From Candidatus Peregrinibacteria bacterium GW2011_GWF2_38_29 (lineage in GTDB: Bacteria; Patescibacteriota; Gracilibacteria; UBA1369; UBA12463), in assembly GCA_000992695.1 (NCBI GenBank), contig LBUS01000006.1, forward strand, positions 21,489 through 85,488: a stretch of DNA of 64,000 nt. The letters are read 5' to 3'. Below the pieces are notes generated by a model, which saw only the letters and a program-made list of their open reading frames with translations, searched no databases and had not been told where the DNA came from. Position 1 is the stretch's first letter, and each line of letters starts with the position of its first letter. The translations under genes were made by a program, and so were the position numbers. Below are positions 38,501 through 43,472 of this stretch, in pieces.

Positions 38501-39626
38501 AGAGTCGGATGATGAAATTATTTTTGTTGACGCAGTAACAGCTGAAAGAGATATAACTCCAAGAAAAAGCATGGGGTCCGTAAAAATAGATTTCACAACG
38601 GCAAAAGATCGTGCACAACAAGCAGTAAGAAGAAAAGTAATTTTAGTGCAACAAAAAAGAGCTTTGGAACTTTTCGAATCAGATAATCCGGATATGGATG
38701 AATTAAAAGCGATGCGCGTTTATAAAAAATATGAAAAAGAAGGTGGCAGAATGGAATATCGTCCATGCAAAGACACTGTTACTGTTTGGCAAGAATATAA
38801 AAAAGGACTGATTCAGCTTTCAGAAATTTTTGCAGTGGACGTTGATCCATTTTCAAGAATTTTAGGGTATGCGCAAAGAGAAGAAGAAAGGCGTGTTGAT
38901 CCTGGAGCAAAACTTTTGGACGAAGCGTTAAGAAGAGGAGGTTTGGTGCTCCCGGGACAAACAGAAACAGAAGGAAAAAGACTGGAGGGATTTATCTACG
39001 AGCATATAGACGAGGTACCTGGAGCAGGCGTCGTTGAGCTTACAGCAATTGTAAAAAAACAGGCATCAAAAGCGGCACTTGGGCTGCATGATGAAATGGC
39101 AATATCAGGCATTATAGAAGGCTTGGATTTAAGTCCGGCACCAATGGGGCAATTGGAAGTCAGTTTTGATAGAAATGAAAACCAAGAACGACTTTTTCAA
39201 GCCGCGTTAAGATTTTTTAGCGATGATCCTGAATTAAAAATAATAGAGCAAGAAAAAAATGAGAAATTAAGGCTAGCGCGAGAAGCTTTAGTCGAAGCGC
39301 TTAATAGCGGTAAGCCAGGCAGAGCGTTCAATATCGTGCAAGAAATAGGAAGAATTGAAGCTGAGGCAATGGTAAAAATGGAAGAACACAGGGCAATCGT
39401 TAAAGAAACTTTGGCAAGATTAAAATCAGATGAAATAAGGATTGTATTGGTTCAGCCTTGCCAATTTGAAGTTCAAAGAACGTACGTTCAAGGTTCATAT
39501 TTATCATTGCAAGAGCTAAAGGACGGCAAGAGAAAGCGTGTTAGAAAAACAAAGTCGGGAGAAGCCACGAACGCAGACGGGGCAATAGCGGAAGCGACAG
39601 ATGTCCCGAACGCCACGGAAGTCTAA
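35526..39626 (+). CDS. Large orphan protein (1366 aa), mostly helical, no signal peptide or TM
   Basis: Uninterrupted 4.1-kb ORF, TTGACA at 35468 upstream; acidic Pro/Glu linker at about aa 940-1000. Confidence 0.75.
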   Translation: MNRPSAGADEGRDILHQQTIMLSEIDEKTRDRLVELARAVLAGEASASSKLRIMFQRTKLPYPDAVGLQNIIDANDLEVVIPENTDEIVDACIDGMDAFQNGHSPYGIRAFLSKAIYEVTGKVKVRLAGEEFFDLIAKCTSDERRKIIKKIYLNWEYAASSESEIQGDNVVREMFIIAAFIAASAHATEDDLAFSKELYREAIELKPELEEEKKKQERANEVRRKLAEFFQPNARSKELLESEDAAKEFVGLMTEYTYIASECSVGVVRIMYDVFALSLEAQMTKDRLQGKPVPSKGKTKIKFESAEKIYMAMLLAEYGGPEYADAFNKAVIGVAHEDENRVNREAMRTYSINGGEFSRRVTYKYLTKETGDHKKAKFEAAAYVPYYSRGLKNRVEEAIKRSRASGKGLVVGDRMVREVMEKSIVEEAIEALCNEIVMAKNESGKITKEDVERVMDKVKFMEAAMIIKKGEVSRLRNGVRNFLEREGVANLINGENLKDYGYYDPDNLGEKFYTEGVDIFINKLGNRNAEVNGSLVQDHYALGMEYMHYLVEMNKLGEGTDAELAYFRKHRRKYEIFAQNVPEEDIINAYGGAITGMAPIIQREMYEMFFKNLKTHERVIRYMTASVVGRDVNDESLRENAKAICKALFMGSYADRNIDFLIQLFHEEERASFYGSGRALSVYITPLLKDRKLVFKKLLTGAIKSEDDLKDARKSLKINRSILANLGGRFKREFMEEFCTLPIFWEAGGARTSAVRLAAKFFEEDADVKLFTNIMTEQSDARAEQGKPDKTVPATRELASSVSAQIAEDLETLNRTEQISEMSGSLKICKKRVMGDGISYKGAMSVVDTPLNKVFKKISIKKTRNGDGKITYAWFLTGQNEQGAYTFEGIFDENNKASFIFRRKGMPFGKNISHENLEGCSERFLQEIEYVVLVFLKTFYDEQPEMPEEIVEPPTPVIEQPSVTLEESEAAVEVPSEVEQLVESQQELLEPPESDDEIIFVDAVTAERDITPRKSMGSVKIDFTTAKDRAQQAVRRKVILVQQKRALELFESDNPDMDELKAMRVYKKYEKEGGRMEYRPCKDTVTVWQEYKKGLIQLSEIFAVDVDPFSRILGYAQREEERRVDPGAKLLDEALRRGGLVLPGQTETEGKRLEGFIYEHIDEVPGAGVVELTAIVKKQASKAALGLHDEMAISGIIEGLDLSPAPMGQLEVSFDRNENQERLFQAALRFFSDDPELKIIEQEKNEKLRLAREALVEALNSGKPGRAFNIVQEIGRIEAEAMVKMEEHRAIVKETLARLKSDEIRIVLVQPCQFEVQRTYVQGSYLSLQELKDGKRKRVRKTKSGEATNADGAIAEATDVPNATEV

Positions 39627-40345
39627 GCCGCCATTTTTATAAAATATTCATGCACGCGAATGTCGTTCGTAAGTTCCGGATGGAACGTTGAAATTAGGAT
39701 GTTGTTTTTTTGCGCGTTGCCGAATTTTCCTTCAGCCATCACAATTTCATTTTTATATTTCGCCAAAATTTCAACATTTTTTCCAACACTTTTTATTTTT
39801 GGCGCACGAATAAAAATCGCAGGAAAATCGCGCACTTTTTTGCGCGTCACGTTGCCTTTGTAGCCAACTTTTTCCCCGAGCACCGGAATTTCCACGTCTA
39901 CCTCAAAGCTGTCAGTTTGTCTTCCATAAGCATTTCTTTCGATCTCCGCATCAATCACGTTAAAAGATTTCACGCCAATGCTCCCGTTATCTCCAAGGAT
40001 TTTTTTTGCAAGCAAAATCGCTCCGGCACAAGTTCCATAAACCGCCATTCCGCTTTTAATTTTCTTTTTTATCGTATCAAAAAGTCCGCCACGTTTAAGC
40101 ATCATGGAAATATGCGTACTTTCTCCGCCGGGGATAATCAGTCCGCGAATATTTTCCAAATCGCGCACCGTTTTAACAAAAACGACTTCAGCGCCGCATT
40201 CTTCAAGCATCATGGCGTGCTCTTCAACGCTTCCCTGAATATCAAGCACGCCAATTTTGACTTTTCGCCCCACGGCTTTGACTTTTGAGCTGTGGTTTTG
40301 AGCTTTGAGTTTTGACTTTTGAGTTTTAGTTTCCGCGTTTCGCAT
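39623..40345 (-). CDS. pdxT: PLP synthase glutaminase subunit (N-terminus extended by heptamer element)
   Basis: IGVL.IQG...EH, IPGGEST, GTCAG.ILLA, RNAYGRQ.DSF, FIRAP, FHPEL. Confidence 0.93.
40276..40327 (-). repeat. Heptamer-periodic element at the pdxS/pdxT junction
   Basis: AAAACTC AAAAGTC AAAACTC AAAGCTC AAAACC ACAGCTC AAAAGTC AAAG; 47/52 identical to the copy at 48661-48712. Confidence 0.85.
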
Positions 40346-41213
40346 AAAGATCCGTAAGTTTACTAATCTCCAAGCTCTTCATCGGTTCACCAAGCCCTTC
40401 TGATACGCGAGCCAAAACATTCGCATCATTAAAATGCAAAACCGCTTCAACGATAGCTTTCGCGCGTTTTAAAGGATCCGAAGATTTAAAAATTCCGCTT
40501 CCAACAAAAACACCATCGCAACCCATTTGCATCATCATTGCTGCATCCGCAGGAGTGGCAAGGCCACCGGCTGCAAAATTTACAACAGGTAGTTTTTGAT
40601 TTTTTGAAACGTATTCAACGAGTGCAATAGGAACGCGCATTTCTTTTGCTTTTTCCGCAATCAATTCTTTTCCCGCACCTTTCAAAAATGCAATTTCGTC
40701 CTTCACGGCACGCACATGTCGAACGGCTTCAACAACATTTCCAGTACCCGCCTCCCCTTTTGTGCGAATCATTGCCGCGCCCTCATTTATGCGCCTTAAA
40801 GCTTCTCCGAGATTTCTGCATCCGCAAACAAACGGAACTTTGAATTTCGATTTATCAACATGATATTGCTCATCCGCAGGTGTAAGCACCTCGCTTTCAT
40901 CAATATAATCAACGCCGAGCGCTTCAAGGATTTGCGCTTCCACGAAATGTCCGATGCGAACTTTTGCCATCACCGGAATCGAAACTGTTTTCATAATTTC
41001 TTTTATCATTTTTGGATCGCTCATTCTTGCAACACCACCTTGCGCACGAATATCCGAAGGAACGCGTTCGAGCGCCATAACCGCAACAGCACCCGCTTGT
41101 TCTGCGATTTTTGCCTGTTTTGCATTTGTCACATCCATAATCACGCCGCCCTTAAGCATCTGCGCGAGCCCGGATTTCAACTTCGGCGTATTTTTCAAAA
41201 CTTTTTTTATCAT
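40326..41213 (-). CDS. pdxS: PLP synthase lyase subunit
   Basis: [57 protein letters not shown]. Confidence 0.97.
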
Positions 41214-41250
41214 AAATATTTTTATTAATTGTTATTGCGTCGGAATTCTA

Positions 41251-43110: not shown

Positions 43111-43176
43111 TTACACCCGCCAATATTTAACGTCACGCCAAGACAAATTTTTATATGCGATTTTGATTTTAAACAT
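43111..43176 (-). CDS. trpL: Trp leader peptide MFKIKIAYKNLSWRDVKYWRV
   Basis: 21-codon ORF, ATG overlaps the last trpR codons, two TGG codons, stop lies within the antiterminator strand. Confidence 0.8.
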   Translation of the reverse strand: MFKIKIAYKNLSWRDVKYWRV

Positions 43177-43420
43177 TTTTAAATCTTTTAAGTTTTAATT
43201 CTCGCGATCCCCTTGTTACAGTTGCCACCCCAACCTTCAATTTTTTAACAATTTCACGTTGAGGAACACCGGCCTTAAGCATTCTAACGATTTCAATTCT
43301 CACAGGCACGGAATCCAGCTCTTGAGCCGTTAAAAGCCCTTTCAAAAACTCCTCCATCTCCTTCGGATTTTTGATTTTCAGCAGGCTTTTTACCAATTGT
43401 TTTAAATAAGCATTTTTCAT
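43169..43420 (-). CDS. trpR: Trp repressor family protein (TrpR/YerC)
   Basis: FL..LLT..E....R.EI..ML..G.PQREI..KL.VG.ATVTRGS..LK helix-turn-helix. Confidence 0.88.
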   Translation of the reverse strand: MKNAYLKQLVKSLLKIKNPKEMEEFLKGLLTAQELDSVPVRIEIVRMLKAGVPQREIVKKLKVGVATVTRGSRELKLKRFKNV

Positions 43421-43424
43421 ATGC

Positions 43425-43472
43425 GTACTATCAAACTAGTACAATAATACATACACTATTTTCAAAAGTCAA
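43425..43472 (-). promoter_or_regulatory. trpR promoter with TrpR operator
   Basis: TTGACT(43472-43467)-N17-TATTAT(43449-43444); palindrome GTACTA-TCAAAC-TAGTAC (43425-43442) resembles the canonical GTACTAGTTAACTAGTAC TrpR box and overlaps the predicted start site. Confidence 0.85.

Follow-up and report, generated by a model that had tools for sequence, protein, structure and literature searches.

The window analysed here, a 64,000-nucleotide stretch from Candidatus Peregrinibacteria bacterium GW2011_GWF2_38_29 (contig LBUS01000006.1, forward-strand positions 21,489 to 85,488), carries on its minus strand a short unit that opens with a tryptophan repressor gene, trpR, continues with a 21-codon leader and an intrinsic terminator and reaches trpB, the gene for the tryptophan synthase beta chain, with pdxS and pdxT, the genes for pyridoxal 5′-phosphate (PLP) synthase, behind it. 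We consider it likely that this unit is a compact, self-regulated tryptophan-salvage cassette, controlled by TrpR and by an attenuator, in a genome of the candidate phyla radiation (CPR) that has been stripped of the remaining trp pathway, and that pdxST became its neighbour by insertion. A preliminary description of this DNA had listed a promoter, a TrpR box, trpR, a leader, an antiterminator, a terminator, an open reading frame (ORF) of 182 amino acids (aa), trpB, pdxS and pdxT, and all of these were found on the minus strand where it had placed them.

The source genome (G000; G001 onward denote relatives from the same order, and L numbers the loci examined) had been called CPR-like, and it indeed belongs to Candidatus Peribacteria (CPR). 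The assembly of this groundwater bacterium comprises 1,233,900 bp in 23 contigs and is rated 100% complete and 1.73% contaminated. It was compared within a set of 201 genomes of the order, itself included, among which G004 and G002 are of the same genus. The features of the regulated unit, in the direction of transcription, are as follows.

43444..43472, minus strand: trpR promoter, with −35 TTGACT (43472..43467), a 17-nucleotide (nt) spacer and −10 TATTAT (43449..43444), from a scan for promoter-like sites
43425..43442, palindrome: putative TrpR operator box GTACTAGTTTGATAGTAC, between the −10 element and the trpR ATG, from sequence and comparison
43169..43420, minus strand: trpR, first gene of the unit, encoding an 83-aa homologue of the tryptophan repressor (Pfam PF01371)
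43111..43176, minus strand: leader ORF of 21 codons, MFKIKIAYKNLSWRDVKYWRV, with its ATG within the last codons of trpR, AAAAATGTTTAA
43138..43140, minus strand: codon Trp13, the proposed sensing codon, 9 codons before the stop
43120..43122, minus strand: codon Trp19, the second leader Trp, inside the antiterminator strand
43110..43123, minus strand: antiterminator 5′ strand, made of Trp19, Arg20, Val21 and the stop codon, from the minimum-energy fold
43078..43092, minus strand: antiterminator 3′ strand, sharing 43085..43079 with the 5′ arm of the terminator, from the minimum-energy fold
43060..43085, minus strand: intrinsic terminator ACCGCCA-AAAAA-TGGCGGT (hairpin 43085..43067) followed by T7, from a terminator scan
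41251..42447, minus strand: trpB, tryptophan synthase beta chain of the TrpB1 type (NCBIfam TIGR00263)

The putative attenuator and operator

Between positions 39000 and 44500, the interval used for all local scans, the terminator downstream of the leader was the top terminator-like site, with seven pairs, five of them G-C. The minimum-energy fold of the leader region pairs 43123..43110 with 43092..43078, so that the TGGCGG of the Trp19 region lies against CCGCCA, at −19.0 kcal/mol versus −9.1 kcal/mol for the terminator. Two of the 21 leader codons specify Trp, which makes up 0.8% of the residues in long ORFs, and at least two Trp codons within the 14 codons before a nearby stop were found at 3 of the 88 terminator-like sites of the whole genome. 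The overlap of the leader ATG with the end of trpR implies that translation of the two would be coupled. The geometry of attenuation proposed in the preliminary description, in which a stall at Trp13 would free the antiterminator strand and a ribosome at the stop codon would mask it, is supported by the layout of the strands, the fold and the relatives. No Rfam family, including T-box, riboswitch and Trp_leader families, was found in the same interval at E values up to 1; the attenuator is predicted to function like Trp_leader, yet it falls outside that family. Because the statistics of a single copy are weak, the case for the attenuator is built on its position and on its conservation in relatives rather than on the window copy.

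Thirteen genomes of the order, described in the next section, carry an orphan trpB, and the corresponding arrangement was present at all 13 loci. Each has at least two Trp codons, located in either a short ORF or the trpR tail, with a hairpin and T-run downstream; each has at the leader stop codon a strand complementary to the 5′ arm of the terminator (13/13); and in each the final sensing Trp codon lies 7–10 codons before the stop (13/13). The closest relatives, G001 and G003, share with G000 the overlap of the leader ATG with trpR, the terminator and the antiterminator. Their leader peptides (MFNFRKNCWRDFKNWRA in G001 and MFKMNKIWRKKFKYWRV in G003) differ from that of G000 in length and in most residues and retain both Trp codons; the three genomes are 94–96% identical in TrpR and 91–98% in TrpB, while the leader peptides diverge. 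The antiterminator was the minimum-energy fold in 7/9 loci of one folding set and in 3/5 of a second.

The terminator arms themselves differ by lineage (CCGCCA, CCGTCAGGC, CCGGCTC, CCGCCTACA and GCCCGTT), and the leader ends change to match them. This was measured by a windowed comparison of duplex energies and not by an alignment-based statistic: the duplex between leader end and terminator arm had a mean of −13.5 kcal/mol for the cognate arm, −8.5 kcal/mol (standard deviation 2.4) for arms of other clades and −5.6 kcal/mol for shuffled leader ends, and the cognate arm was the best partner in 10 of the 13 loci and in 6 of the 9 clades. By this comparison of sequences, the leader-terminator pairing is one that co-varies between lineages.

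The gene trpR lies directly upstream in 8 of the 13 orphan loci; the other five (G185, G144, G115, G091 and G048) have a leader and a terminator without trpR. A second small ORF of about 28–32 codons stands between the terminator and trpB in four of these, L040–L043 (G144, G115, G091 and G048). It starts with MKK or MKN..F.FK, contains one Trp, with R or H as the next residue (...HYWRHE, ...EHWRLK, ...FYWHP) and is conserved across three families.

Upstream of trpR, the promoter was the best of 14 promoter-like sites in the scanned interval and matched 10 of 12 positions; the count of such sites is not above chance (14 versus 12.0 ± 3.2 in shuffles). Its hexamers are identical in G001. The box GTACTAGTTTGATAGTAC spans the expected transcription start and ends 4 nt before the trpR ATG, and GTACTA-N6-TAGTAC occurs once in the 1.23-Mb genome. 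Together with its flanks, the box is identical at 16 of 20 positions to the operator DNA of 1TRO in the sequence as printed in PMC2504314. Allowing one mismatch at most, a GTACT-N8-AGTAC box was found within 110 nt upstream of trpR at 27/43 loci, compared with 1/781 control windows drawn from the same loci; two more loci were excluded for lying too near a contig end, and L010 and L036 among those counted are one place. The operator, the Trp codons and the hairpins, whose conservation in relatives had been left as a point to check, are thus kept (27/43 boxes and 13/13 attenuators).

The 83-aa protein scored 76.2 bits against Pfam PF01371 (cut-off 27), with residues 6–77 aligned to profile positions 3–75 of 88, and its best NCBIfam model was that of TrpR, TIGR01321. 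In alignment with E. coli TrpR chains, the motifs LLT, R-I/V-x-I-V and G-I/V-A-T-I/V-T-R-G-S are kept. These include the equivalents of Thr44, Arg54, Arg84 and Gly85 of E. coli TrpR, residues that hold Trp or read DNA. Double control by TrpR and by a Trp-codon attenuator therefore appears well supported as far as sequence comparison reaches. As for further TrpR targets in G000, only sites with four mismatches, on contigs C8 and C10, were found; they were judged to be chance, and the neighbouring ORFs were uninformative. The site on C10 (position 26055) lies 1.6 kb from a second gene of the TrpR fold (C10:27646–27933, L179:2646–2933), a YerC/YecD member with 87 bits against a cut-off of 42.2, a proximity that is probably also chance.

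Several observations weigh against a Trp-controlled salvage cassette. The 161-nt leader region of the window has an ordinary fold energy (z −1.47; 15 of 200 shuffles fold equally well), and the full-length minimum-energy fold in G001, G058 and G126 is the terminator, not the antiterminator. The cognate arm was not the best partner in G178, G144 and G115, where the fixed windows partly cut the helices; G144 has a weak terminator of −4.7 kcal/mol, and G126, G091 and G048 have broken T-runs. A stall at Trp19 would favour termination, and this codon may have been retained for RNA pairing rather than for sensing. The TrpR homologue fails the NCBIfam equivalog TIGR01321 with 56.6 bits against a cut-off of 67.25 and stops about 7 positions short of the end of the Pfam model. 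TrpB1 enzymes are usually far less active without TrpA. The sequencing runs listed as containing the region were all DNA runs, with no RNA run among them. Finally, all of the genomes are metagenome bins, and the absence of a gene from them hinges on binning.

Two alternative explanations bear on the regulatory part. The hairpin and T-run might do no more than terminate an mRNA of trpR alone, in which case the small ORF would be no sensor and trpB would have its own promoter. This would agree with the ordinary fold energy of the leader, with the 3 of 88 sites in G000 at which two Trp codons lie near a terminator and with the existence of leaderless relatives in which trpE comes straight after trpR (L007, L017, L018, L022 and L023). 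We nevertheless hold it to be highly unlikely: the Trp codons, the distance to the stop and the leader-arm pairing are kept in 13/13 loci across five families despite the turnover of sequence, the gap of about 50–60 nt between terminator and trpB in G001 and G003 showed no promoter-like hexamers by eye, and the five orphan loci that have a leader and terminator without trpR can hence have no trpR terminator there. Alternatively, the 83-aa protein could be a regulator of the TrpR fold that is blind to tryptophan, in the manner of YerC/YecD, as its score under the equivalog cut-off, its shortness relative to the Pfam model and the presence in G000 of the YerC/YecD-type protein (87 bits) would allow. 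Against this stand the higher score of the 83-aa protein with the TrpR model than with YerC/YecD (56.6 versus 39 bits, the latter under its own cut-off of 42.2), the retention of the Trp-binding or DNA-reading residues (the Thr of LLT, the Arg of R-I/V-x-I-V and T-R-G-S), an operator that is nearly that of E. coli, and the position of trpR at the head of trp genes in many relatives, and a Trp-blind protein appears very improbable.

Orphan TrpB and the order-wide trp operons

The window TrpB scored 551 bits against TIGR00263 (cut-off 392.45) and 167 bits against the TrpB-like model TIGR01415 (cut-off 519), and it is 63–70% identical to the ordinary TrpB of many phyla. No match to TrpA (PF00290) or to indole-3-glycerol phosphate synthase (IGPS; PF00218) was found in G000, and both controls were matched in 14/14 genomes known to have them. 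A tblastn search of G000 with the proteins of the G004 operon, which consists of trpR, trpE (515 aa), trpG (190 aa), a 1002-aa IGPS-TrpB fusion and trpA (251 aa), returned TrpR, TrpB and weak amidotransferase matches, and no TrpE, TrpD, TrpC or TrpA; nor did tryptophanase give a match above cut-off in G000. The earlier statement that no trpA and no upstream trp genes accompany the orphan trpB is therefore borne out in a genome rated 100% complete. In the G004 operon itself (C27, L141:2840–5848), IGPS and TrpB share one frame of about 1002–1006 aa; since the IGPS of other members lies in open frames of 540–1556 aa, fusions of trp genes are common in the order.

Tryptophan synthesis is not rare in the order: among the 201 genomes, 76 have a TrpB match, 63 TrpA and 63 IGPS. 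The TrpB matches fall into distinct sets. A TrpB 65–100% identical to that of the window defines the orphan class of 13 genomes (G000, G001, G003, G185, G178, G058 and G116, plus G174, G126, G144, G115, G091 and G048), which are 85–100% complete and contain TrpA in 0/13 and IGPS in 0/13. A TrpB 46–54% identical to it occurs in 61 genomes, in all of which TrpA adjoins, and G165 and G170 have only a 34–35% TrpB match. The orphan and the operon lineage of TrpB never occur together in one genome of the set.

A tree of 107 TrpB sequences was midpoint-rooted; L061, a duplicate of L034, was left out, as were L122 and L134, which did not pass the filter on length and stops. A branch with support 99 sets the 17 operon TrpBs apart from all others; on its other side, 77 TrpBs of other phyla stand together with the orphan TrpBs, which fall into a group of 4 and a group of 9. 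Because these 77 outsiders were selected as those most similar to the query and rooting was only at the midpoint, the tree gives no direction of transfer. The orphan lineage is spread over families f1, f2, f4, f17 and f19 and does not follow family membership; G185, for instance, is a member of f17, yet its TrpB lies closest to those of the G000 group (f1).

In relatives with the full pathway, trpR is also first in the operon and is preceded by the same box, and many of these operons have a WWW or otherwise W-rich leader and a terminator between trpR and trpE (for example L004, MNWWWEDHMIRRF; L009, MTRNNKNWWWINTSEQLRR; L012 and L014; in L008 three W are scattered). At least two W codons plus a terminator were counted at 9/25 loci, six with separate ORFs and three in frame; as this count demands a hairpin that abuts the T-run, it misses L008, L011 and L014, which were added by eye. 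Besides the five leaderless operons named above, L015, L016 and L020 have no leader or terminator after trpR and carry a second TrpR palindrome, GTACTG-N6-(A/C)AGTAC, before trpE, and two operators would be an alternative solution to the same problem. In another class of the phylum, one locus (G476, L182) has a trpR with a perfect box, GTACTAGTATAAAAGTAC; after it come a leader with WWW, MKNNQTVQFWWWTVSWR, and a hairpin resembling a terminator, and the 1.5 kb downstream showed no match to TrpE or TrpB.

In some members the Trp codons belong to the trpR reading frame and lie at its 3′ end, namely in G058, G116, G174 and G126 of the orphan class and in the full operons L006, L011 and L026. The tails read ...AVWRDFKSWRTS in G058, ...VWRDFKSWRS in G116 and ...WWKDFKSW in G174 and G126, compared with ...SWRDVKYWRV in the window leader, and the WRDFKSWR of G058 and G116 nearly equals the WRDFKNWR of the separate leader of G001. 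Pfam alignments of TrpR end at profile positions 76–84 of 88, before the W-rich tails (L006, L010, L011 and L026), and the tails would thus lie mostly beyond the alignable TrpR domain, though they might still correspond to the usual final helix of the repressor.

Taken together, these comparisons suggest that the window unit is a cut-down derivative of the order-wide trpR-leader-trpEGDCBA operon, with a TrpB that is only about 50% identical to those of the order's operons. A more specific scenario, which we put forward tentatively and would not rate as high as even, is that trpR itself served as the attenuation leader, that a stop codon and a frame shift detached this tail to give the window leader, and that a mobile trpR-(tail or leader)-trpB cassette replaced the full operon in these CPR bacteria. 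The split-off leader would stay translated through its start-stop overlap with trpR.

The pdxST neighbourhood and orf182

Downstream of the attenuator, the unit and its flank contain four further features.

42492..43040, minus strand: orf182, an ORF of 182 aa between attenuator and trpB, called as an open frame and present in G000 only
41245..41273, minus strand: candidate pdxS promoter TTGTTG-17 nt-TAGAAT, with TG one base upstream of the −10 element, over the trpB stop codon; seen by eye, weak
40326..41213, minus strand: pdxS, lyase subunit of PLP synthase (NCBIfam NF003215, 500 bits, cut-off 395)
39623..40345, minus strand: pdxT, glutaminase subunit of PLP synthase, overlapping pdxS by 20 nt (TIGR03800, 205 bits, cut-off 105.55)

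The absence of a terminator between trpB and pdxS, noted in the preliminary description, was confirmed; the gap is 37 nt and holds no terminator-like site. The order of genes is MFS-recR-(488 bp)-pdxS-pdxT in G004, MFS denoting a gene of the major facilitator superfamily, and recR-pdxS-pdxT in G002, with no trp genes between, and in G000, G001 and G003 a 2.3-kb trpR-leader-trpB piece sits between recR and pdxS. Since trp genes are missing from the recR-pdxS-pdxT region of G004 and G002, trpB and pdxS became adjacent through insertion of the cassette, an event that we would place in the ancestor of G000, G001 and G003. Linkage of trpB with pdxST is accordingly confined to 3 of the 13 orphan-trpB genomes, which form this one close clade; the remaining ten have pdxS on another contig or, in the case of G058, no PdxS match. 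Across the order, PdxS occurs in 138/201 genomes irrespective of trpB and adjoins trpB only in G000, G001 and G003. Other orphan cassettes lie beside pyrF and a ksgA-like gene (G058), an MFS gene and an hpf-like gene (G178), or efp and serS (G185). In G185 (L144:3741–5574), efp lies downstream of the orphan trpB on the same strand, and after it comes seryl-tRNA synthetase in two ORFs, one for the N-terminal domain and one for the core, a split that may reflect a frameshift or an assembly error; the proximity of trpB and serS was judged to be coincidence, though serine is the co-substrate of TrpB.

G000 encodes at least five other PLP enzymes, namely serine hydroxymethyltransferase (SHMT), at least three class I/II aminotransferases and one class V enzyme, and a PdxK-type kinase was not found in it. 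For these two reasons, we regard pdxST as the general PLP source of the whole cell. With the insertion, pdxS of the G000/G001/G003 clade lost the upstream region that is present in G004 and G002, and its transcription must, to judge from this layout, be fed either by read-through from the cassette or by a start inside the end of trpB. The candidate promoter over the trpB stop codon recurs with little or no change in G001 and G003 and falls below the threshold of the promoter scan. It appears that pdxST may receive read-through transcripts of the cassette and probably has a transcription start of its own as well.

A reading in which trpB-pdxS-pdxT form one adaptive, Trp-controlled module, with PLP synthesis co-induced as a cofactor supply for TrpB, could point to the short terminator-free gap, to the preservation of the arrangement in G001 and G003 and to the loss of the upstream region of pdxS, by which some read-through becomes plausible. 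We nonetheless judge it unlikely, and the claim of a module "with its own cofactor supply" found no support: the linkage is limited to three genomes of a single close clade and was created by insertion into recR-pdxS, PdxS is widespread regardless of trpB, a weak extended −10 promoter candidate lies over the trpB stop codon, and shutting off pdxST at plentiful Trp would starve SHMT, the aminotransferases and the class V enzyme. Caution is thus due with a story of cofactor supply that rests on an adjacency made by insertion. The other question is what the orphan TrpB is kept for, as it could have been retained for a different reaction, such as serine deamination, indole detoxification or the formation of another beta-substituted amino acid. 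There is no TrpA to activate it and no encoded source of indole, tryptophanase having given no match above cut-off, and PLP enzymes of beta-replacement are generally known to be promiscuous. However, two Trp-specific sensors over trpB in all lineages examined fit the relief of Trp shortage, and the protein is a clear TrpB1 equivalog (551 bits) with 63–70% identity to the ordinary TrpB of many phyla, so that a different reaction seems to us quite unlikely.

The 182-aa ORF that the preliminary description had placed in the unit is present; it is missing from the corresponding place in G001 and G003 and is an insertion private to G000. Its position would make it the first gene released by the attenuator. 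A word-based search among 5.8 billion clustered proteins matched only orf182 itself; HMMER over representatives found one distant relative, P0002 (167 aa, E 2.5e-6), plus two weak matches to repeat proteins. No Pfam or NCBIfam family and no paralogue in G000 was found for it, and its AlphaFold2 single-sequence model was unusable (mean predicted local distance difference test score 35.8). A separate Atlas comparison gave no usable feature match, and its structural template-modelling scores were all below 0.5. Since a frame of 182 codons stays open in an AT-rich genome, orf182 is probably a real gene; its GC content of 0.404 is similar to that of its neighbours. No link to Trp was seen, and it is likely to be a hitch-hiker.

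In G001, the region from recR to the trpR promoter (L175:7841–10343) holds an extra 2.5 kb that encodes a FemAB-family protein and contains two ORFs to which no family could be assigned. Given the trp cassette, orf182 in G000 and these 2.5 kb in G001, the recR-pdxS gap is a hot spot of insertion in the genus; no signs of mobile elements were seen around the cassette. Upstream of the unit, the recR ORF (43481–44176, minus strand, GTG start, 231 aa) overlaps the MFS ORF before it (44058–45254, minus strand) by 119 nt, and because the RecR domains begin at about residue 38, the true start is probably an internal ATG. On the other flank, a 1366-aa ORF (35526–39626, plus strand) with no Pfam family above cut-off converges on pdxT; the ends of the two overlap by 4 nt, with no terminator-like site between the genes.

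Proposed mechanism and comparison with known systems

We propose that a single promoter drives trpR, the 21-codon leader, the attenuator, orf182 and trpB. With plentiful Trp, Trp-bound TrpR on GTACTAGTTTGATAGTAC would close the promoter over the transcription start. On transcripts that escape, the ribosome that ends trpR would re-initiate at the overlapping leader ATG and so trail the polymerase closely. When Trp-tRNA is charged, this ribosome would reach the stop codon (43113..43111) and cover 43123..43110, the terminator would form, and only trpR mRNA would be made. When charged Trp-tRNA is scarce, a ribosome stalled with Trp13 in its A site would protect about 12–13 nt downstream, to about 43127, and leave the strand from 43123 free, about 4 nt past the expected edge of the ribosome. 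The free strand would capture 43092..43078 before the 3′ arm of the terminator is made, and the polymerase would read into orf182 and trpB. TrpB alone would then make Trp from serine and from indole of environmental or host origin. Such a layout would also permit trpR to be expressed without trpB.

Ribosome-mediated attenuation demands tight coupling of transcription and translation, and CPR bacteria are regarded as dependent on other cells and as having little regulation. Here this classic, demanding mechanism would be at work in a CPR organism, stacked on a TrpR operator close to that of E. coli. Peribacteria with TrpB only amount to about one-sixth of the TrpB-bearing genomes sampled (13/76) and should depend on indole supplied by a partner or taken up from their surroundings. 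Coupled leaders, Trp codons in the repressor tail, leaders without a repressor and second operators together offer a natural series for the origin and rewiring of attenuators. Among the papers searched, no account of a trpR-leader-trpB system in Peribacteria, Peregrinibacteria or CPR was found. Tryptophan biosynthesis genes of Gracilibacteria are mentioned in PMC9166423, and PMC4736985 ascribes few amino-acid biosynthesis genes to the Peribacter genomes that it describes and leaves tryptophan unmentioned.

Control of trp genes by TrpR repression together with TrpL attenuation has been described (PMC7755916). The window unit would share with the E. coli trp operon two layers of control, by free Trp and by charged tRNA-Trp; a near-identical palindrome (16/20 of the 1TRO DNA); and a short leader ORF containing Trp codons, together with an intrinsic terminator and an antiterminator that competes with it. 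Unlike the E. coli operon, the window unit begins with trpR, which would be transcribed from the common promoter; the leader is predicted to be translationally coupled to trpR and in relatives is an in-frame tail of it, the switch consists of three strands instead of four with the antiterminator over the leader stop, and trpB is the only trp structural gene under the proposed control.

The parallel drawn earlier to Chlamydia trachomatis stands in one part. The trpRBA operon of that organism likewise has trpR first, then an intergenic region and salvage genes, in a bacterium without de novo Trp synthesis that takes indole from outside (PMC7755916); it retains trpA, which is absent from G000. 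The part that treated TrpL attenuation as established there does not stand, as the chlamydial TrpL, annotated with 59 aa and non-consecutive Trp codons, lacks validation and is predicted to attenuate poorly, and attenuation-like control is exerted in trans by YtgR (PMC7755916). The window attenuator, in contrast, appears compact, conserved and of the canonical ribosome-stalling type. A likeness to the WWW motif of chlamydial YtgCR exists in those relatives whose trpR tail contains the Trp codons (G058, G116, G174, G126, L006, L011 and L026), where translation of the regulator ORF would report the Trp supply; YtgCR acts on the amount of a trans repressor and on termination within ytgCR (PMC7755916), whereas a flip of an antiterminator in cis is proposed here.

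Stand-alone TrpB2 and TrpB-like enzymes also do without a TrpA partner, and the window protein differs from them in being a TrpB1 by TIGR00263. The trpR-leader-trpE..A operons of other Peribacteria have the TrpR box, the trpR-first order, W-rich leaders and terminators in common with the window unit; the latter lacks trpE, G, D, C and A and carries a TrpB of a different lineage.

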